This document shows positions 1,663 through 12,960 of a DNA stretch of 44,112 nucleotides, piece by piece. Made by a program: the position numbers and the translations under genes. Below the pieces are notes generated by a model. It was not told the DNA's origin and made no database searches. It saw only the letters and a list, made by a program, of their open reading frames with translations. The stretch comes from a candidate division WWE3 bacterium (GTDB lineage Bacteria; Patescibacteriota; WWE3; UBA101185; UBA10185), in the NCBI GenBank assembly GCA_945897985.1, contig CAMDGN010000003.1, positions 1 through 44,112 of the forward strand, given 5' to 3'. Position 1 is the stretch's first letter. Every line of letters starts with the position of its first letter.

Positions 1663-4600
1663 ATGAGATATAACCTAGCAAAAAATTCAAAGAAGTTCCC
1701 AATACCAAACTTATCAAGCTCACAAAAAGAGTCATACAACACCCTTATTAAAGAAGGTTTTAACGAATTATTAAAAGAATTCGGAACTATTATTGATGAA
1801 AGTGGTAGAGGCTGGGAATTAACTTTCTCAAACCCTACATTAGAAAAACCAGTTATTTCTTTGGAAGAGGCTATTAGAAAAGGAAAATCATACGAGGCTC
1901 CTTGGTATTTAACAGCTACACTTAAAGACGCAGTTAGAAGAATTGAAAAAGTTCAAAACATATACATGGGAGATATCCCATTGATGACTGATACAGGAAC
2001 TTTCATTATTAACGGAACTGAAAAAATAGTACAACACCAACTTGTAAGAGCTGAAGGATCCTACTTCACAGCTGATATCTCTCCAATGACAAGACAAATT
2101 TTAGGAGGAGTTAAAATCCAACCTAAAATTGGATCATGGGTTGAAATCGAAACTTCAAGAACTGGTGTTCTTTCTGTAAAAATTGACAAAAAAAGAAAAT
2201 TTACAGCCACAACTTTACTAAGAGTATTCGGAATTGAATCAGACGATCAAATCAGAGAATTATTCAAGGATGTTGACATTAATCCTGAAGTATCCTATAT
2301 CGAATCAACAATCGTTAAAGACCCTTCATCTTCAAAAGAAGAAGCTGCAATTGAAATCTTCAGAAAAATGAAACCAGGGGAGCCTTTAATTTTAGAAGAT
2401 GCTCAAAGACAAATCAATCAATTATTTTTCGACCCAAACAGATATTCACTTGGTAAAGTTGGAAGATTTAAAATCAATCAAAAATTTGGTTTAGATACAC
2501 CAAACGACGACATTCACAGATTACTCACTAAGGAAGACTTAGTAGAAATTATCAAATATATTATTAAAATTAACAACGGTTTAGGTCAACCTGATGATAT
2601 CGATCACTTAGGAAATAGAAGACTTAAATCAGTTGGTGAATTACTACAAATTGAAGTTAGAAGAGGTTATTTACAACTTAAGGCTAATATTTTAGAAAAA
2701 ATTTCTCTACAGCAAAGAGACTCTTTCCCAGAGCCTTCAGTTTTGATTTCAACCAAGCCTGTTTCATCAAAGATTCAATCTTTCTTTAATACTGGTAGAT
2801 CAACTGCTCTACACGAACAGTTCAACCCATTAACAAGACTTGACTACTTACGAAGAATGAATGCAGCTGGTCTTACTAAAGAAAGAGCTGGACTTGCGGT
2901 AAGAGACGTTCACTATTCACAATACGGTAAAATTTGTGCCGTTAGAACTCCAGAAGGTGCAAGCATTGGTCTTACAACTTTCTTATCTATCTACGCAAGA
3001 ATTAACGAGTATGGTTTCATTGAAACCCCTTACTTCGTACTTGATAAATCAGGAGACAAAGTAAAAGTTACTGATCAAGTAGTTTACCTTGCAGCTTACG
3101 ATGAAGATAATTCCTACATCATAGGGTATGGAGCTGAAATTGACGAAAAAGGATTCATTGTTGAAAAGCAAGTTCCTCTTAGAAAGAAAGGTCAATTTAT
3201 CCTTGGTGATCCAGCTCAAGCTGATTACATTGACGTTGACTCAGCTCAGGTTATCGGTATCACTGCAGGACTTATTCCTTTCATTCAATCTGACGACGTT
3301 ACTAGAACCTTGATGGCTTCATCCCAATTGAACCAAGCTGTTCCTCTGATTAAAGCTGACGCCCCATTAGTTGGAACTGGTATTGAAGAAGATATTGCTA
3401 AAAATTCTGAATGGATTCAATTTGCCGATAAAGATGGTGTTGTTGAATACGCTGACTCTTCTAAAGTTATTGTTAGATACGCAGGAGATAAAGAATTAAC
3501 AACTTATAACCCAACTAAGTTTAGAAAATCAAATCAAAATACAAACTATAACCAAAAAGTTACAGTTAATTCAGGTCAAAAAGTTAAAGCCGGAGAAATT
3601 CTTTTCGAAGGACCTTCAATCTCTAATGGTGAGTTAGCAATTGGTGCTAACGTTAGAGCTGCTTACATGGTATGGAGTGGTTATGAATTCGAAGACGGAA
3701 TTGTAATCTCTGACAGACTTGTAAAAGAAGACATTTTAACATCTATTAAAATTGAAATTAAAGAGTGTGAAGTTGTTGAAACTAAACTTGGAAATGAAGA
3801 GATCACAAGAGACATTCCTAACGTTTCTGAAGATTCACTTAGACACTTAGACAAACACGGTATCATCGCTGTTGGATCAGAAGTTTTCCCAGGAGATATC
3901 CTAGTTGGTAAAGTCGCACCTAAAGGTGAAGGAGATTTATCAGCTGAAGAAAGACTTCTACGAGCTATCTTCGGAGAAAAAGCTAAAGATGTCAGAAACA
4001 CCTCCCTATCTATGGATAACGGAGAAAAGGGAACTGTTATTGAGGTTAGAAGACTGTCTAGAAAAGATTCAAGCTTCAGCAAAAACGGTGTTATTGAAAA
4101 AGTTCAAGTTTTCATTGCACAACAAAAGAAGATTGAAATCGGAGACAAATTGGCTGGAAGACACGGAAACAAAGGAGTTATCTCCGCTATCGTTCCTGAA
4201 ATTGACATGCCTCACATGGAAGACGGAACTACAATAGATATTATCTTCTCAGCAGAATCTGTACTTAAGAGAATGAACTTAGGTCAAACCTTCGAAGCTC
4301 CTCTAGGACTTGCTGGAAGAAGATTAGGTAAAAGGTACACAGTTCCTGTTCTTAAAGAGATCGATAACGATATTATTGCTAAAGAACTTGAAGATGCCAA
4401 TATACCTGCTAACGGTAAAGTTAGATTGGTTGATGGTAGAACCGGTGAGTTCTTTGACAGACCAATTACTGTTGGAGAAACTTATATCCTAAAACTTCAC
4501 CACATGTCTGAGGATAAGATTCACGCAAGATCTGTTGGACCTTATAACTTGATCCACCAACAACCTCAACAAGGTAAACAAAACATGGGTGGTCAAAGAC

Positions 4601-4980
4601 TTGGAGAAATGGAAGTTTGGGCATTGCAAGCTTATTCAGCTGCAAACTTACTACAAGAAATGTTGACAATCAAATCAGACGATATGATTGGAAGAGATAA
4701 AGCTTATAGAGCAATTCTTGAAGGTCAACCAATTCCTGAGCCTACAGTTCCTGAATCATTCAAACTTCTTGTAAGAGAGTTGAACGGTCTAGGTCTAGGT
4801 ATCGATCCTTTAGAAGCTATTAGACAAGAAGTGGAAGATGTTGTTACTCCGGAAACACCTCTTGTTGAAGAAGAAAGCACATTGGCTGATGAAGATACAG
4901 CAGACAAAATAACTGAAGGTATGTCAGAAGTTGATGATAAAAAAGATGTTAATTTCGAAAATATGGAGGAAATAGAATAA
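1663..4980 (+). CDS. rpoB: RNA polymerase beta subunit
   Basis: DDIDHLGNRR, RDVH, GDKLAGRHGNKG, KLHHMSEDKIHARS, GGQRLGEMEVWAL, KSDD motifs. Confidence 0.99.
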   Translation: MRYNLAKNSKKFPIPNLSSSQKESYNTLIKEGFNELLKEFGTIIDESGRGWELTFSNPTLEKPVISLEEAIRKGKSYEAPWYLTATLKDAVRRIEKVQNIYMGDIPLMTDTGTFIINGTEKIVQHQLVRAEGSYFTADISPMTRQILGGVKIQPKIGSWVEIETSRTGVLSVKIDKKRKFTATTLLRVFGIESDDQIRELFKDVDINPEVSYIESTIVKDPSSSKEEAAIEIFRKMKPGEPLILEDAQRQINQLFFDPNRYSLGKVGRFKINQKFGLDTPNDDIHRLLTKEDLVEIIKYIIKINNGLGQPDDIDHLGNRRLKSVGELLQIEVRRGYLQLKANILEKISLQQRDSFPEPSVLISTKPVSSKIQSFFNTGRSTALHEQFNPLTRLDYLRRMNAAGLTKERAGLAVRDVHYSQYGKICAVRTPEGASIGLTTFLSIYARINEYGFIETPYFVLDKSGDKVKVTDQVVYLAAYDEDNSYIIGYGAEIDEKGFIVEKQVPLRKKGQFILGDPAQADYIDVDSAQVIGITAGLIPFIQSDDVTRTLMASSQLNQAVPLIKADAPLVGTGIEEDIAKNSEWIQFADKDGVVEYADSSKVIVRYAGDKELTTYNPTKFRKSNQNTNYNQKVTVNSGQKVKAGEILFEGPSISNGELAIGANVRAAYMVWSGYEFEDGIVISDRLVKEDILTSIKIEIKECEVVETKLGNEEITRDIPNVSEDSLRHLDKHGIIAVGSEVFPGDILVGKVAPKGEGDLSAEERLLRAIFGEKAKDVRNTSLSMDNGEKGTVIEVRRLSRKDSSFSKNGVIEKVQVFIAQQKKIEIGDKLAGRHGNKGVISAIVPEIDMPHMEDGTTIDIIFSAESVLKRMNLGQTFEAPLGLAGRRLGKRYTVPVLKEIDNDIIAKELEDANIPANGKVRLVDGRTGEFFDRPITVGETYILKLHHMSEDKIHARSVGPYNLIHQQPQQGKQNMGGQRLGEMEVWALQAYSAANLLQEMLTIKSDDMIGRDKAYRAILEGQPIPEPTVPESFKLLVRELNGLGLGIDPLEAIRQEVEDVVTPETPLVEEESTLADEDTADKITEGMSEVDDKKDVNFENMEEIE

Positions 4981-7900
4981 TGAAAAATATACAGGATCTT
5001 AAAAAATTTGAAGCGTTAAAAATTTATATTGCGTCAACTGACGACATTTTAAATTGGTCCTATGGTGAGATTACTAAACCTGAAACTATTAACTATAGAA
5101 CTTTTAAACCTGAAAAATTTGGTTTATTCGATGAAAGAATTTTCGGACCTCATAAATCTTACGAGTGTGCTTGTGGAAAATATAAAAGAATTAGATACAA
5201 AGGTGTAATTTGTGATAAATGTGGTGTTGAAGTAACTACCTCAAAAGTTAGAAGAGAAAGAATGGGCCACATTAAACTTGCTACTCCTGTTGCACACGTA
5301 TGGTTTTTTAAGGCAAACCCTTCAAAATTAGCTACATTATTAGACTTATCTCCTAGAAATCTTGAATCTGTTATTTATTTCTCATCTTTCATCGTAACTG
5401 AAGTTGAGAACTCTAAAAAACCTTCCGCAGTTACTAAAGTTGAAAAAGACTTGATGGCTGAGAAGGAGCTGTTAGTTAGAGAAATGGAACTTAAGATCGC
5501 TGACTTAGAAGCTACAAAAGGTGCCGAACTCAGAGCTAAAAAAGGCCTATCTGTAGAGGAAGCTTTAAACAAGCTACAAGGCCAAATACAAAAAATTAAA
5601 AACAATTATGCTGATAAACAAGCTGATGTTGAGTCTCAATACAAGATGTTTATTAAGAGAATTGAAAGCATGGATGTTCATACAATTATCCCTGATACAG
5701 AATATACAGTTTTGATGTCTTACCTACCATTGTTTGCAAAATTAAGCATTGGTGCTGAAGGAATTCAACAAATTCTTAAAGACTTAGACTTGAATAAAAT
5801 CGCTCTTGAGTTAAAAGAGGGTCTTGAGAATGCTAAAGAAGCTAAAGCTATCAAACTTCTTAAGAGATTAAAAGTTGTTGAAGGCTTCAGAAGATCAAGC
5901 ATTAACCCAGACAGAATGATTATGGAAGTAATTCCAGTAATCCCTTGTGACTTAAGACCAATCGTTCCTATTGAAGGTGGAAGAGCTTTCTCATCTGACT
6001 TAAACGACTTATATAGAAGAGTTATCAATAGAAATAACCGATTGAAGAGACTTATGGATCTTGGTGCCCCTGAGATTATCTTAAGAAACGAAAAAAGAAT
6101 GTTACAAGAAGCTGTTGACGGTTTATTTGACTCTTCAAAACAAAGAGTAAGTTCAAAAGCAGCTAGAGGTCCTCAAGCAGCTAAAAAACAATTAAAGTCA
6201 CTTGCTGACCTACTAAAAGGTAAATCTGGACGATTCAGAGGTAACCTTCTTGGTAAAAGAGTGGACTACTCAGGAAGATCCGTTATCGTTAACGGCCCTG
6301 ATTTGAAGATTAATGAGTGTGGTATTCCTAGAGAAATGGCTCTTGAGTTATTCAAACCAATGGTTCTAAGAGAACTTATGGTTAGAGGTAATCCAAATGA
6401 AAGATCAGCTAAGGCTGTACTTGATTCAAGAGTTGGTGAAGTTTATGACGTATTGGAAGAGGTTGTAAAAGGCCATCCAGTTCTTCTAAACAGAGCTCCT
6501 ACACTTTGGAGACTTGGTATCCAAGCTTTCTATCCAAAATTAATTGATGGAAACGCAATCAGATTACACTTATGTGTTGCTTCTGGTTATAACGCGGACT
6601 TTGACGGTGACACTATGTCTGTTCACGTTCCTCTATCCGAAAAAGCTATTGATGAAGCTAAGAATTTAATGATTTCAACCAATAACTTGTTGAAACCTTC
6701 AGACGGTACTCCAGTTGCTAACCCAGCTAAGGAAATGATCTGGGGATGTTTCTACCTAACTAAGATGGATGAAACAATGCCTGAATACTCAAAAGTATTC
6801 TCAAACTTTGACGAAGCAAGGTACATTTTAGATTCAACTTCTGAAATTGATGTACACCAACCAATCAAAGTAAGACACAATGGGGAAATTATTAGAACAA
6901 CTGTTGGAAGAATTATTTTTAACGAAATTATCCCTTCAGATGTGTTTGAAAATAAATCTTTTGACAAAAAAGCTATCAACAAATCAATTCTTGACGCCTT
7001 TAAAATCGTTGATAATGAAAGACTTGGTCAATTTATTGACGACCTAAAGAATATCGGTTTGAAATACGGAACCAGTTCTGGTCAATCAGCTTCTGCTAGG
7101 GATATTGTCTCTCCAGAATCTCTTGATATTGTTATTTCTGAAGCTAAGCTAAAAATGGAAGAGCTAAACAAAGCTCTAAAAAGAGGTCTTGCTACTCAAC
7201 AAAACGTTTCCCAAAGAGCCAACGAGATCTGGAAAGATGCGTTCGCAAAAATCCAAAGTGATTTATGGAACAACTTATCAGCTACTAACCCTGTTAAAGA
7301 GTTGATCGAATCAGGATCTTCAAAAGCTACAAAAGATTCTATTACTCAGATTGCTGGAATGAAAGGTCAGATCGTTGACACATCAGGTAAAACTGTTGAT
7401 TTCCCAATCTTAGGAAATTATATTTCAGGACTTTCAGGTTTTGAATACTTCTTAAGCTCTAAATCAGCTAGAAAAGGACTTTCAGACCGAGCTCTAAAGA
7501 CTGCTGACTCCGGTTATTTAACTAGAAGATTAGTAGACGTTGCTCAAGACGTTATTGTTAGACAAGAAGATTGTGGAACAACAGACGGATTTGCAATGGA
7601 AGTTACAGATAAAGGTTTCTCTCTTGATTTCGAGTCAAGAATGGAAGGAAGATTTGTAGCTAAAGATGTTAAAGACGGAAGCAAAGTTGTGATTAAAGCT
7701 GGAACAATGTTAACCGCTGAGATTATCAAAGAGATTAAATCTCTTGGTATCAAGGAGATATCAATTAGATCACCACTATCTTGTCAGACAAATAGAGGAA
7801 TCTGTCAAAAATGCTTTGGAATAGATTTAATGACTAAGGAAATGATAAAGATTGGTACTCCAATTGGAGTTGCTTCCGCACAATCTATCGGAGAGCCAGG

Positions 7901-8660
7901 AACTCAGTTAACAATGAGAACATTCTGGGGAGGAGGAGTTGCCGGAGGAGCTGACATTACTGTTGGTCTTGAAAGAGTTGAAGAAATTTTCGAGGCTAGA
8001 ATTCCAAAAGCTCAAGCAACCCTTGCTGAAATTGACGGTAAAGTTAAGATTATAGAGACCGGAGATGATAGAAAGATTATTATTCTACCTAAGAACAAGA
8101 CTGAGGAAGAAGAAGCTGAGTATATTATCGATACAGTTATGAAGATTATCGTTGAAGATGGTCAAGAAGTTGTAAAGGGTGACAAATTAACAGACGGACA
8201 CAAAGACCTAACTGAGTTACAAAGACTAGTTGGAGTTGCTGGAACTAAGAAGTACATCGTAGATGACGTTGTTAAGATGTATTCATCACAAGGTGTTGCT
8301 TTAAACGACAAATATGTGGAAGTTATTGTAAGACAAATGTTTAATCACGTTAGAGTTGAGGATTCAGGAGACACAACATTTATGGTTGGTGAAACTGTAA
8401 CAAGAGCAGGATTTAAAGAAGAGAATGAAAAGATTATTGCTTCAGGTGGAAGACCTGCAATTGGAAACGTTATCTTACTTGGAATCAAGAGAGCTGCTAT
8501 CGGATCAGATTCATTCTTATCCGCTGCATCATTTGAGCAAACATCGCTAGTATTGACCGATGCTGCTGCTTCTGGTAAAGTTGACTCGCTAATCGGATTG
8601 AAGGAAAACGTAATTATAGGAAGACTAATTCCAGTAGGTGATTACGTAAAGAAAATATAA
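4980..8660 (+). CDS. rpoC: RNA polymerase beta' subunit
   Basis: KPETINYRT, Zn finger [42 protein letters not shown]. Confidence 0.99.
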
Positions 8661-8661
8661 T

Positions 8662-9081
8662 ATGCCAACATTTAACCAGTTGTTGAAAACAAAAAGAAAA
8701 TCGAAAAAACTTAAATCAAAAGCTCCGGCTCTAGGTGAAATTTTTAACTCAAAAAAGAAGGTTTCTAAGAAATTAATCTCTCCTTTCAAGAGAGGTGTTT
8801 GTTTACAAGTTAAAACACAAACTCCTAAGAAACCTAACTCAGCTTTAAGAAAAGTTGCTAGAGTTAGACTTTCAAACGGTAAAGAGCTAACTGCTTACAT
8901 CCCAGGAGAAGGACATAACTTACAAGAGCACTCTGTTGTAATGATCAGAGGTGGAAAAGTTAAAGACTTGCCAGGTATTAAATATACAATTGTTAGAGGT
9001 ACTTTCGACTTACAAGGAGTTAAAAATAGAAAAACTTCAAGATCAGTTTACGGTACTAAGAAAGAGGTAGTTAAAAAATAA
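8662..9081 (+). CDS. rpsL: 30S protein uS12
   Basis: [26 protein letters not shown]. Confidence 0.99.
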
Positions 9082-9084
9082 CCT

Positions 9085-9549
9085 ATGAGATCAGGAGCCA
9101 TTAAAAAAAGACAAGTAAACCCAGATATCGTTTTCAAATCAAAAACTGTATCTAAATTAATTAACATCTTAATGTTACACGGTAAGAAGTCTCTTGCTGA
9201 AAAAATTATTTATTCTTCATTAGATAAAATTAATGAAGACAAGAAAGAGTCATTAAGAATTTTCGAACAAGCTATCAAGAATGTAATGCCTAAAAATGAA
9301 GTTAGATCAAGAAGAGTTGGTGGAGCAACCTACCAAGTTCCTTATCCAGTTAAACACGAAAGATCTGAAAGTTTAGCTTTAAAATGGATTGTTGAATCTG
9401 CTAGAAAAAAACAAGGTAAAGAGATGGTAGAATTTTTGAAAGATGAGATTCTAAACGCATACAATAATATGGGCGACGCTATCAGAAAAAGAGACGACGT
9501 TCATAAGATGGCTGAATCAAACAAGGCCTTCTCTCACTTAAAGATCTAA
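9085..9549 (+). CDS. rpsG: 30S protein uS7
   Basis: EVRSRRVGGATYQVP, HKMAESNKAF. Confidence 0.99.
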   Translation: MRSGAIKKRQVNPDIVFKSKTVSKLINILMLHGKKSLAEKIIYSSLDKINEDKKESLRIFEQAIKNVMPKNEVRSRRVGGATYQVPYPVKHERSESLALKWIVESARKKQGKEMVEFLKDEILNAYNNMGDAIRKRDDVHKMAESNKAFSHLKI

Positions 9550-9599
9550 TCTAATAAGTATAAATTTTTGAGGAAACTTCGTTACAAGAGACTTAAAAT

Positions 9600-11687
9600 A
9601 TGAGTGAAAATATTACATATCCATTAGAGAAAATTAGAAACATTGGTATTATTGCGCACGTTGATGCCGGTAAAACTACAACTACAGAGAGAATTTTATT
9701 TTATACAGGTAAATCCCACAAAATTGGAGAAGTGCATGAAGGCGCAGCTCAAATGGACTGGATGGAACAAGAGCGAGAAAGAGGTATTACAATTACTTCT
9801 GCTGCTACAACATGTTTTTGGGATAATCACAGAATTAACATTATAGATACACCAGGTCACGTTGACTTCACAGCTGAGGTTGAAAGATCCTTAAGAGTTC
9901 TTGATGGTGGTGTTGTATTGTTTGACGGAGCTCAAGGAGTAGAACCTCAATCCGAGACTGTCTGGAAACAAGCAGAAAAATACGGAGTTCCACTACTTGC
10001 TTTCATAAATAAATTAGACAAAGTTGGAGGAGATTTCTTCATGACTATGGATACTATCCACGAGAGACTTTCCAAAGACGCAGTTGCTGTCCAACTTCCA
10101 TTAGGCTTTGAAGAAACATTCTCAGGAGTTATCGATCTTATCGAACGAAAAGCCTACAAATTTGAAGGAAAAATGGGTCTTGACGTTATAGAGATTGAAA
10201 TCCCTCAAGACATGCTTGAAAAAGTTGAAACTTATAGAAGCACCCTAGTTGAAAAAATTTCTGAAAAAGATGATGTTTTAATGGACAAATTCTTAAATGG
10301 AGAAGAGATCTCAGTTATTGAACTTAAAACAACTCTAAGAAAATTAGTTATTAGTACAACAATCTACCCTATTTTTTGCGGGTCCTCTCTTAAAAATGTT
10401 GGAACCCAAAAATTACTTGATGGTGTTGTAGATTACCTACCTTCACCTAAAGATAAACCTCTTATTAAAGCTAAAAAAGATAATCAAGATGGTGAAGAAA
10501 TTGAACTTATCCCAAACCCAAATGGTGAATTTGCGGCCCTTGCCTTCAAAATCCAAACCGATCCTTATGTTGGAAGAATTACTTATTTCAGAGTTTACTC
10601 TGGAAAAATTTCTGCAGGATCTTACGTCTTGAATCCAAAGAATGGTAAACGAGAAAGAGTTTCAAGACTTCTTCTTATGCATGCAAATCACAGAGAAGAG
10701 ATTAAGGAAGTAGGCGCTGGAGAAATTGCTGTTGCTGTTGGACTAACAGAAACTAGAACAGGAGATACAATGTGTTCTGAAAACACACCAGTTGTGCTAG
10801 AGTCAATTAAATTTGCTACTCCGGTTATCGGACTTGTTATCGAACCAAAGACAAAAAATGATAGAGACAGATTAGGTGAAGCTTTAAGAAAATATCAAGA
10901 AGAGGACCCAACCTTCAAAGTTGAAACTGATGCTGAAACTGCTGAGACTCTTATCTACGGAATGGGTGAATTACACCTTGAGATTATCGTAGATAGATTG
11001 AGAAGAGAGTTTAAAGTTGAGGTTACTACTGGTAAACCCCAAGTTGCCTATAGAGAAACTATTAAGGGTACTGCTGATGTTGAAAATAAATTCATAAGAC
11101 AAACTGGAGGTAGAGGTCAATACGGTCACGTATACATAAGAATTAAACCTCTTGATCAAGGTACTGGATTACAGTTTATTGATAAAATCGTTGGAGGTTC
11201 AATTCCTAGAGAATTTATTCCGGCTGTAGAAAAAGGATTTAAGGAAGCTTGTGAAGCTGGAACTACTGCTGGATACCCTGTAGTAGATATTGAATGCACT
11301 CTATATGATGGGTCATATCACGATGTGGACTCTTCCGAAATTGCCTTCAGGATTGCAGCAATTGAAGCTTTTAGGACAGCACAAAAGAAAGCTACCCCAA
11401 TATTACTTGAACCAATTATGAGTGTTGAGGTTGTTGTCCCTGAAGAATTCATGGGAGATATTATTGGAGATCTATCCTCAAGAAGAGGAAAGATTGAAGG
11501 TACTGAACAAAGGAGCATGTCCAGAGTTATCAGCGCAAAGGTTCCTTTGTCTGAAATGTTCGGGTATGTAACTCACGCTAGAGGTCTAACTCAAGGAAGA
11601 GCTGTTCCAAATATGGAATTCTCACACTATGAGGAGGTACCTTCAAACTTGGTACAGGATATTGCATCAAAAAGAGCTAAGAAATAA
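9600..11687 (+). CDS. fusA: Elongation factor G
   Basis: [45 protein letters not shown]. Confidence 0.99.
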
Positions 11688-11717
11688 CCATAAAAGCACT
11701 TTATTTCAGTAAATTTT

Positions 11718-11726
11718 TGGTATAAT
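11718..11726 (+). promoter_or_regulatory. Extended -10 promoter for tuf
   Basis: TG-G-TATAAT, a consensus extended -10, in the fusA-tuf gap. Confidence 0.7.
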
Positions 11727-11781
11727 ATCGGAGTTATTATTTGTAATTAATTGAGGAAACCCCTCACATAGAAAGATTTAT

Positions 11782-12960
11782 ATGGCAGAGTTTATTAGAA
11801 CAAAACCACACGTAAACATCGGTACTATTGGTCACGTTGACCACGGTAAAACAACATTAACTGCGGCTATTACTACAGTATTGGCTAAAAAAGGCCAAGC
11901 TGAAGCTAGAGCTTACGCACAAATTGATAATTCCCCAGAGGAAAAAGCTAGAGGAATTACTATCTCTATTACTCACGTTGAGTATGAGACAGAAAAGAGA
12001 CACTACGCGCACGTAGATTGTCCAGGACACAAAGACTATATTAAAAACATGATTACTGGTGCTGCACAGATGGATGGAGCAATCCTTGTTGTTGCTGCAA
12101 CTGACGGAGCAATGCCTCAAACAAGAGAGCACTTACTACTTGCTAAACAGGTTAACGTTCCTCAAATTGTTGTATTCTTAAACAAATGCGACATGGTATC
12201 CGACCCTGAACTTCTTGAACTTGTTGAGTTAGAGATCAGAGAATTACTATCAAAATACGGATTCGATGGAGATAACACACCTATAGTAAGAGGCTCAGCT
12301 CTTAAAGCTCTTGAAGGAGATTCTAAATACGAAGACGCTATTATTGAATTAATGAGCGCAGTTGATAGCTTCATTCCAGATCCAATAAGAGATTTAGATA
12401 AAGCTTTCTTAATGCCAGTTGAAGACGTGTTCTCAATTGCAGGAAGAGGTACTGTAGTTACTGGAAGAATCGAAAGAGGAAAAGTAGCTGTTGGTGAAGA
12501 AATCGAAATTGTTGGAATTAAGGATACTGTTAAAACAGTTGTTACCGGAGTTGAAATGTTTAAAAAACAATTAAAAGAAGGTATGGCTGGAGATAACGTA
12601 GGTCTTCTATTAAGAGGAACTAAGAGAGAAGATATCGAAAGAGGTCAAGTTTTGTGTAAACCAGCATCAATTAAACCAGCAACTCAATTTGAGGCTGAAG
12701 TTTATATTCTTTCCAAAGATGAAGGCGGAAGACACAAACAGTTCTTTTCAGGTTATAAACCACAGTTCTATCTAAGAACTACAGATGTAACTGGAGAAAT
12801 CACTTTACCAACTGGTATTGAAATGGTAATGCCAGGAGATAACGTAAAATTCATCGTTAAATTACTTTCCCCAGTAGCTATTGAAGACGGACTAAGGTTC
12901 GCGATCAGAGAAGGTGGGCAAACAGTAGGAGCTGGAGTTGTAACTAAAGTTATAGCTTAA
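11782..12960 (+). CDS. tuf: Elongation factor Tu
   Basis: [26 protein letters not shown]. Confidence 0.99.

Follow-up and report, generated by a model that had tools for sequence, protein, structure and literature searches.

The trigger loop of the window's RpoC

The window analysed here is the whole of a 44,112-nucleotide stretch from a candidate division WWE3 bacterium (assembly GCA_945897985.1, contig CAMDGN010000003.1), in which rpoC, the gene for the β′ subunit of RNA polymerase (RNAP), has a tryptophan codon at the trigger-loop position where the Escherichia coli enzyme has histidine (β′ H936). The features on which this observation depends are listed below, with coordinates in the numbering of the window.

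4980..8660, plus strand: rpoC, RNAP β′ subunit, 1226 amino acids, from the open reading frame (ORF), its translation and Pfam; the single match in its own genome
6591..6611, plus strand: NADFDGD catalytic Asp triad, residues 538-544, intact, from the translation; conserved in every RpoC row used
7890..7994, plus strand: trigger loop, residues 971-1005 (GEPGTQ...EEIFE), with no His, from the translation and alignment
7926..7928, plus strand: W983, codon TGG, in the E. coli β′ H936 column (the contact to the β-phosphate of the nucleoside triphosphate, NTP), from the alignment

An earlier reading of the same DNA (the original prediction) had placed W983 at TGG 7926-7928, and residues 972-1000 of our translation match the string given there exactly. 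Its assignment of W983 to the His position of the TMRTFH motif was borne out by an alignment of 147 RpoC rows which includes E. coli K-12 (L050), from which row the E. coli numbering is taken (W983, G984, V995, E998, S787 and S829 correspond to H936, I937, G1136, P1139, Q736 and G778, respectively). The H936 column holds Trp in all 20 rows of the clade to which the window belongs (the Trp clade), His in 26 of 28 rows from its kin, and His in each of the 98 distant rows. The NADFDGD motif is intact, as had been claimed; it should be noted that this motif served as a filter when RpoC frames were chosen for the alignment.

Four Rpb1 domains (PF04997, PF00623, PF04983 and PF04998, which are domains 1, 2, 3 and 5) scored above cut-offs in the window RpoC, domain 4 (PF05000) was not among the matches at E <= 0.001, and the best PDB matches were bacterial β′ chains (E = 0). 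The bridge helix, F-loop and trigger loop are present and can be aligned to E. coli residues 729-808 and 892-1150, without SI3, and the trigger-loop Met and Arg are retained. Every structural criterion that we applied places the predicted protein in the RpoC family, and the only feature it lacks is the His, which is conserved but does not define membership. The protein is like the canonical E. coli RpoC (TMRTFH, H936) in its domain set, NADFDGD, bridge helix, F-loop, trigger-loop frame and place after rpoB, whereas it differs in the Trp of the clade at H936, Glu or Gln at P1139, Ser or Ala at G778, Ser at Q736 and in more changes found only in the clade.

We considered whether the Trp codon might be an artefact of sequencing or assembly, lie in a pseudogene or in a paralogue without a housekeeping role, or be a TGG that has been recoded, and judge all of this to be extremely improbable. 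The move from CAY to TGG takes three base changes, as had already been argued, and where the original prediction left room for CAY in the data at 7926-7928, the contigs across the codon from a possible source run (X1) and from runs of three other studies (X3, X4 and X10) all have TGG with no other letter listed (this comparison used contigs, in which rare variants are dropped, and not raw reads). The nearest listed contig difference to the codon is at 7946 in run X3, and the stretch 7400-8500 was seen in 20 listed runs from 13 studies, all of which are freshwater or lake water metagenomes. The same Trp is present in 11 metagenome contigs and 12 protein clusters, the 1226-residue frame is intact with its Rpb1 domains, the gene is single-copy, and the ratio of non-synonymous to synonymous substitution rates (dN/dS) is far below 1. 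As for recoding, TGG also encodes the Trp of the RpoB GEMEVWAL motif, which is common to E. coli. On these grounds (contigs, single copy, dN/dS and GEMEVWAL) sequencing error, a pseudogene, a second copy and recoding were all ruled out.

We also note that foreign contig pieces in runs X1, X3, X4 and X10 match 7881-7925 and then continue into CAC or CAT, the His codon of their own rpoC; the depth in the 7881-7925 bin is inflated because these foreign rpoC pieces align there.

The genes on either side of rpoC are as follows.

1663..4980, plus strand: rpoB, RNAP β subunit, 1105 amino acids, from the ORF and its translation
8662..12960, plus strand: rpsL, rpsG, fusA and tuf, directly 3' of rpoC, from ORFs; used here as rate controls

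The rpoB stop and the rpoC start share one base (TAATG). The description of this as the normal rpoBC locus stands for rpoB just 5' and for the rpsL-rpsG-fusA-tuf genes 3', but not for the genes upstream of rpoB (199-1551), which encode an ABC-2 type transporter and a signal peptidase (S26) where E. coli has ribosomal protein genes (rplL). The genome containing the window (584 kb in 37 contigs, 92.3% complete) has one rpoC match, and a second canonical rpoC that might be the functional copy, a possibility raised with the original prediction, was found neither in this 92.3%-complete genome nor in the sister genus G019. The gene has the marks of a housekeeping rpoC in being single-copy, adjacent to rpoB and under purifying selection, and the proposal that this is a natural housekeeping RNAP which lacks the canonical His of the trigger loop is supported; we infer that the polymerase is active because its gene is under purifying selection and present in single copy.

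Distribution and history of the tryptophan

The Trp clade consists of 20 RpoC sequences in which two GTDB genera, 12 protein clusters and 11 metagenome contigs are represented. Among 60 matched relatives, 30 loci were read at the H936 column (28 from genera of the same family and two from genera of the same order), with His in 26, Trp in two, Gln in one (G035) and Tyr in one (G023), the Trp pair being the window's own genome and G019 (70% identity). A search of a 5.8-billion protein set with this protein region returned 120 proteins, the best 12 of which (P0003-P0014) all have Trp, and the remaining 108 are made up of 104 with His and four that did not match the motif pattern. Scanning metagenomes for the Trp motif gave 15 matches, consisting of 11 RpoC trigger loops with Trp and four chance matches.

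The Trp rows are monophyletic with a support of 100 in two trees, and the stem of the clade is the longest inner branch of the family (0.41 in the FastTree tree of 56 rows and 0.48 in the quick IQ-TREE tree of 49 rows). The clade is divided into G019-like and own-like subclades, with RpoC identities down to 68.9%. All seven independent DNA copies from the clade have TGG, with pairwise dN/dS of 0.04-0.16 and synonymous sites near saturation. The combination of a single clade, an invariant Trp and low dN/dS near synonymous saturation therefore indicates that Trp was gained once and has been kept by selection. The steps by which this happened can be listed by codon-table reasoning only, and single-step paths run His-Arg-Arg-Trp, His-Gln-Arg-Trp or His-Tyr-Cys-Trp. 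The base of the family is a polytomy in both trees, in which a sister relationship of the Gln lineage (see below) to the Trp clade, the arrangement that would favour the path through Gln and Arg, is not supported, and we claim no order for the losses of His. A further difference between the subclades was seen immediately after the Asp triad (6612-6620), where the own subclade has TMS in place of the near-universal QMA; QMA is found in the G019-like rows, and AMA in P0013 and P0014.

A DNA scan for GEPxTQxxxxTFW in one genome for each of 185,579 species, which like the metagenome scan detects only trigger loops of the form GEPxTQxxxxTF, produced four matches, one of which is an RpoC, on the G019 contig (a Patescibacteria metagenome-assembled genome). 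Together with the window's own genome this places Trp at the H936 column in two of about 185,579 GTDB species. We also sampled 401 evenly spread genomes of the phylum, using a scan that detects only GEPGTQxxxxTF trigger loops, and found the His motif in 302 (301 of 400 when G207 is left out) and a codon starting with A, G or T in two, namely the own genome (Trp) and G142 (Lys); 97 of the 401 matched neither pattern, and C-initial codons other than CAY (Gln, Arg, Leu and Pro) are uncounted here. The concern that Trp might already be common at this position is answered by these figures, with Trp in one of the 304 pattern-readable genomes of the phylum sample as well as in the two species.

Three other residues were found in place of the His. 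A Gln lineage in the same family comprises G035 (L008) and 14 of 14 clusters (P0243-P0256, E <= 1e-33), with the sequence TFQTGGV... and the source name "candidate division WWE3 bacterium" on the clusters. The Tyr lineage is narrow, being made up of G023 (L017) and P0126 (a cluster of 15 member sequences), and is sister to a His-type genus; Tyr was the residue in one of 117 newly listed proteins that were tallied, and the other 116 have His. Lys is known from a single genome of another Patescibacteria family (G142, L082, at G142:C1:192460-192496), where the sequence is TMRTFKSGGVAG.... The 49-row tree recovers the Gln, Tyr and Trp groups as separate clades, each with a support of 100, and the sister lineages carry Gln or Tyr independently of the Trp clade. 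Both are like the Trp clade in belonging to the same family, in the column affected, in having a sole rpoC (one match each) and in having GreA, whereas they differ in that each requires one base change, and the companion changes described below and the long stem belong to the Trp clade only.

These repeated losses bear on whether the Trp arose through relaxed constraint and drift. A slower or less accurate RNAP might be tolerated in ultra-small, slow-growing and probably host-dependent cells, in which case the His would have been lost (possibly via Gln, Arg or Tyr) while other conserved residues decayed, leaving a state that is frozen and not optimised. We regard this as rather unlikely. In favour of drift, one family alone accounts for three or more losses of the His (to Trp, Gln and Tyr), with one more elsewhere in the phylum (to Lys), the 584-kb genome has low guanine-plus-cytosine (GC) content and a raised FYMINK amino-acid content, and a defect in cleavage could be covered by GreA, which the genome has. 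However, the Trp is invariant despite near-saturated synonymous sites and the dN/dS of 0.04-0.16, and the retention of His in 302 of the 304 pattern-readable genomes indicates that the site is not relaxed across the phylum.

The GreA family was present in six of six genomes searched (the Trp, Gln, Tyr and Lys genomes plus one His genome). A Gre factor was rejected as a discriminator of RNAPs without the His, as GreA also occurs in the His genome.

Companion changes in the two large subunits

The Trp is accompanied by changes elsewhere in RpoC, and those closest to the active centre, together with one further segment, are given here as rows of the alignment.

7929..7931, plus strand: G984, I937 column, next after the Trp; Gly in 15, Thr in three and Ala in two clade rows, Thr in 24 of 28 kin
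7962..7964, plus strand: V995, G1136 column, trigger-helix 2; Val in nine, Leu in eight and Met in three clade rows, Gln in 28 of 28 kin
7971..7973, plus strand: E998, P1139 column; Glu in 17 and Gln in three clade rows, Pro in 28 of 28 kin and 94 of 98 distant rows
7338..7340, plus strand: S787, Q736 column, F-loop; Ser in 20 of 20 clade rows, Gln in 94% of the others
7464..7466, plus strand: S829, G778 column, bridge helix; Ser in 12 and Ala in eight clade rows, Gly in 28 of 28 kin and 97 of 98 distant rows
5946..5990, plus strand: segment with four clade-specific changes at near-universal columns (P247C, L252I, L255I/F and A261F/M)

Two of these had been anticipated in the original prediction, and both turned out to be properties of the clade and not of the window alone: the change of GLPRV to GLERV (the P1139 column, with no Pro in any of the 20 rows) and a bridge-helix change (G778, now Ser or Ala in all 20). 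The segment at 5946..5990 we take to be the lid region. When we restricted the comparison to columns with a conservation of 95% or more among 98 diverse RpoC proteins and no change in 26-28 of the 28 kin, the clade changes were P247C, L255I/F, A261F/M, K370R, W409Y, E677N/D, G778S/A, H936W, P1139E/Q, Q1238I/V/L, H1252Y/F and L1314I. Where the His is replaced by Gln, Tyr or Lys, TQGLPR, G778 and Q736 are all retained, and the companion package is therefore specific to Trp.

RpoB has also been remodelled, as seen in the following rows of its alignment.

2788..2868, plus strand: segment equivalent to E. coli 507-536, which covers rifampicin cluster I and runs into fork loop 2; rewritten and three residues shorter
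2974..2976, plus strand: I572 column, Thr here; Val in four and Thr in three clade rows, Ile in 25 of 25 others
4546..4602, plus strand: segment equivalent to E. coli 1252-1270; PLGGKAQFGGQRF in the others and PQQGKQNMGGQRL in the clade (seven of seven rows)

The H526 column within the first of these is Tyr in the window (2845-2847). Across the seven clade rows, Q513 is replaced by Ala, Asn or Ile and H526 by Tyr, Phe or Ile, S531 is Asn in three, Thr in two and Ser in two, and D516 is Asp in four and Glu in three; non-clade rows have Gln at Q513 in 25 of 25 and His at H526 in 24 of 25. Q513, H526 and I572 are altered in all seven clade rows and S531 in five, and the active-site residues R678, E813, D814, K1065, K1073, R1106 and H1237 are kept in all seven. 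We take Q513, D516, H526, S531 and I572 to be positions of rifampicin resistance or sensitivity, and the clade RNAP is predicted to be naturally insensitive to rifampicin. The near-invariant segment at 1252-1270 presumably overlaps a switch region near the end of the RNA-DNA hybrid.

The extent of change can be expressed as departures from near-universal columns. For RpoC (310 columns) there are 32-41 departures in the clade (n = 9) and 17-28 in kin (mean 23.0, standard deviation 2.9, n = 28), and for RpoB (396 near-invariant columns) there are 59-63 in the clade, 1-17 in same-family rows and 5-9 in three same-order rows, with two other class-level rows reaching up to 45. The divergence between clade and kin, as a ratio to that among kin, is 1.31 for RpoC, 1.02 for S12, 1.15 for S7, 1.14 for EF-G and 1.19 for EF-Tu. 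By this measure the branch of the clade is somewhat long in general, and RNAP shows an excess beyond that. The excess of departures in both subunits would be expected of the decay of conserved residues by drift considered above, but the co-changes fall at the same positions in all 20 RpoC rows, low-GC kin (L003, L015 and L017, with GC of 0.355-0.366) have ordinary burdens of 19-24, and the acceleration of RpoC is above that of all four translation proteins.

Another explanation for the origin of the state is that inhibitors drove the Trp and its companions, either a microcin J25-like lasso peptide or a streptolydigin-like compound bound in the secondary channel or at the trigger loop or bridge helix, with the RpoB pocket having changed against a rifamycin-like one from neighbours or hosts. 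We think this unlikely, and note that it is compatible with a positional role for the Trp in the function of the enzyme as it concerns origin only. The E. coli rpoC mutation H936Y is among the microcin J25 resistance mutations in a review table (PMC7680869), and in the structure of microcin J25 with RNAP the essential Tyr9 lies buried against S775, G778 and A779 of the bridge helix, R744 and M747 of the F-loop, and D675 and N677 of β (PMC6347699). One of these Tyr9 contacts, G778, is the bridge-helix residue changed to Ser or Ala in 20 of 20 clade rows, while all 28 kin and 97 of the 98 distant rows keep Gly. The changes at RpoB Q513, H526 and I572 (seven of seven) and S531 (five of seven), positions whose role in resistance is assumed here, and the greater excess of change in RNAP than in the four translation proteins also point this way. 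Against it, no inhibitor, producer or host is on record for the clade, other resistance positions (Q921, T931 and T934) are unchanged and D675 and R678 of β are kept, and the changes extend to the lid region, β 1252-1270 and many surface columns, which do not form one binding site. Some chance overlap is also to be expected since the conserved cleft is the site of many drugs. A search of the window's own 92.3%-complete genome for the lasso-peptide maturation gene PF13471 gave no match, which counts further against an inhibitor as the driver. It is similarly doubtful that the active-centre package as a whole (trigger loop, bridge helix, F-loop, fork loop 2, rifampicin pocket and β 1252-1270) was selected as resistance to multiple inhibitors. 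From the altered residues of the secondary channel and the rifampicin pocket, an unusual response to inhibitors can also be predicted for these abundant uncultured freshwater bacteria.

We also looked for signs of self-immunity in a lasso-peptide producer, and there were none, PF13471 not having been found in the 92.3%-complete genome.

Tryptophan as a probable positional substitute for histidine

Whether the trigger-loop His acts as a general acid or has a positional role has been debated for years. Recent work has H936 forming a hydrogen bond to the NTP β-phosphate and sees it now as a positional and not an acid-base catalyst, and reports that the E. coli enzyme is affected in only very minor ways when H936 is replaced by Gln (PMC13198411; PMC11343019). 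In yeast RNA polymerase II (Pol II), substitutions of the equivalent H1085 by Lys, Arg, Trp or Tyr are viable but sick, Gln is mild and Leu healthy, and Ala, Asn, Asp and Phe are lethal (PMC5127505); each of the natural replacements reported here (Trp, Gln, Tyr and Lys) has a viable counterpart in yeast. In addition, most gain-of-function trigger-loop mutants suppress yeast H1085Y (bioRxiv 10.1101/2023.02.27.530048).

We think it probable that the Trp clade has a sole, working housekeeping RNAP in which Trp is a positional stand-in for His within a co-evolved active centre. The His that hydrogen-bonds the β-phosphate would have been swapped once for Trp in the ancestor of the clade and the Trp retained since then. 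The bulky side chain at the tip of trigger-helix 1 might pack against the triphosphate, and the indole N-H could possibly donate a hydrogen bond in place of His, such that acid-base chemistry would not be needed and catalysis would rest on the Asp triad, the trigger-loop Met and Arg, and the Arg and Lys phosphate contacts of the β subunit. The companion changes could then be epistatic adjustments, by which space is provided for the indole and the folding of the trigger loop is retuned, in a setting of a smaller residue after the Trp, the loss of Pro and Gln from trigger-helix 2, and Q736S and G778S/A. In the closed trigger loop Q736 and Q739 make backbone hydrogen bonds with I937 and H936 (Mueller 2026, PMC13198411), and Q736S would adjoin the Trp because of these bonds. 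The sequences establish that the column is homologous and inherited, that the gene is single-copy and under purifying selection, and that the neighbouring sites co-vary; enzymatic activity, the role of the indole and the identity of the co-changes that compensate are inferred.

There are several points that weigh against this interpretation. The rpoC genes of the clade have a GC content of 0.344 compared with 0.399, and part of the extra divergence tracks this lower GC. Yeast P1099 we take to be the equivalent of P1139, by aligning GVPRL with GLPRV. Most yeast P1099 substitutions are loss-of-function (PMC5127505), and P1139E/Q is for this reason probably not a simple gain-of-function compensator. 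Yeast H1085W alone is likewise a severe loss-of-function allele (PMC5127505; bioRxiv 10.1101/461210), and because of this the clade enzyme may be slow.

On the matter of GC content, we asked separately whether adenine-plus-thymine pressure could by itself account for the extra substitutions, and rejected this given the ordinary burdens of the low-GC kin.

The trigger-loop His is described as universally conserved or ultra-conserved in three sources (PMC13198411; PMC11343019; bioRxiv 10.1101/2023.02.27.530048), and we found no published account of a natural trigger-loop Trp, with an earlier mention in Mishanina 2017, Palo 2021 or supplements being possible. The Trp polymerase is new as a natural variant, although the enzyme itself is very well known; the prior departures from the His are laboratory alleles (yeast and E. 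coli) and plant RNA polymerase IV (Pol IV). It resembles the engineered yeast Pol II rpb1-H1085 W, Y, Q, L, K and R alleles in the column affected and the residues involved (PMC5127505; bioRxiv 10.1101/461210), but those are single laboratory substitutions, whereas the clade Trp is natural, fixed, in the sole RNAP, under purifying selection and accompanied by co-varying second sites. It resembles E. coli rpoC H936Y in being a bacterial β′ with an aromatic residue at the trigger-loop His, the mutant being viable in cells (PMC7680869), but that is a selected laboratory mutant with Tyr and the clade residue is Trp. Plant Pol IV, with Ser at this site, is also a natural multisubunit RNAP without the His (PMC11343019); in contrast to the clade, which has no other polymerase, Pol IV is described as a slow, specialised second enzyme beside Pol II with a trigger loop that makes no NTP contact.

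A natural, sole and selected Trp polymerase, together with its Gln, Tyr and Lys relatives, would provide independent evolutionary evidence for the positional model, and the co-varying second sites offer a ready set for testing active-centre epistasis in the E. coli or yeast enzymes. If the changes in the active centre were indeed selected as one package against inhibitors, then the 'universal' His would be dispensable in the right epistatic background, and that background could be read from natural sequences.

Two minor observations concern rpoB and rpoC in other genomes. A possible rpoB-rpoC fusion in G017 (a 2330-residue open frame) was not confirmed, as L028 and L071 are separate stretches of 1225 and 1104 amino acids. 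In G014:C5, from the same family, the rpoB and rpoC matches are fragmented with many in-frame stops (for rpoB, three TGA, four TAG and three TAA), and this locus may be degraded or misassembled.

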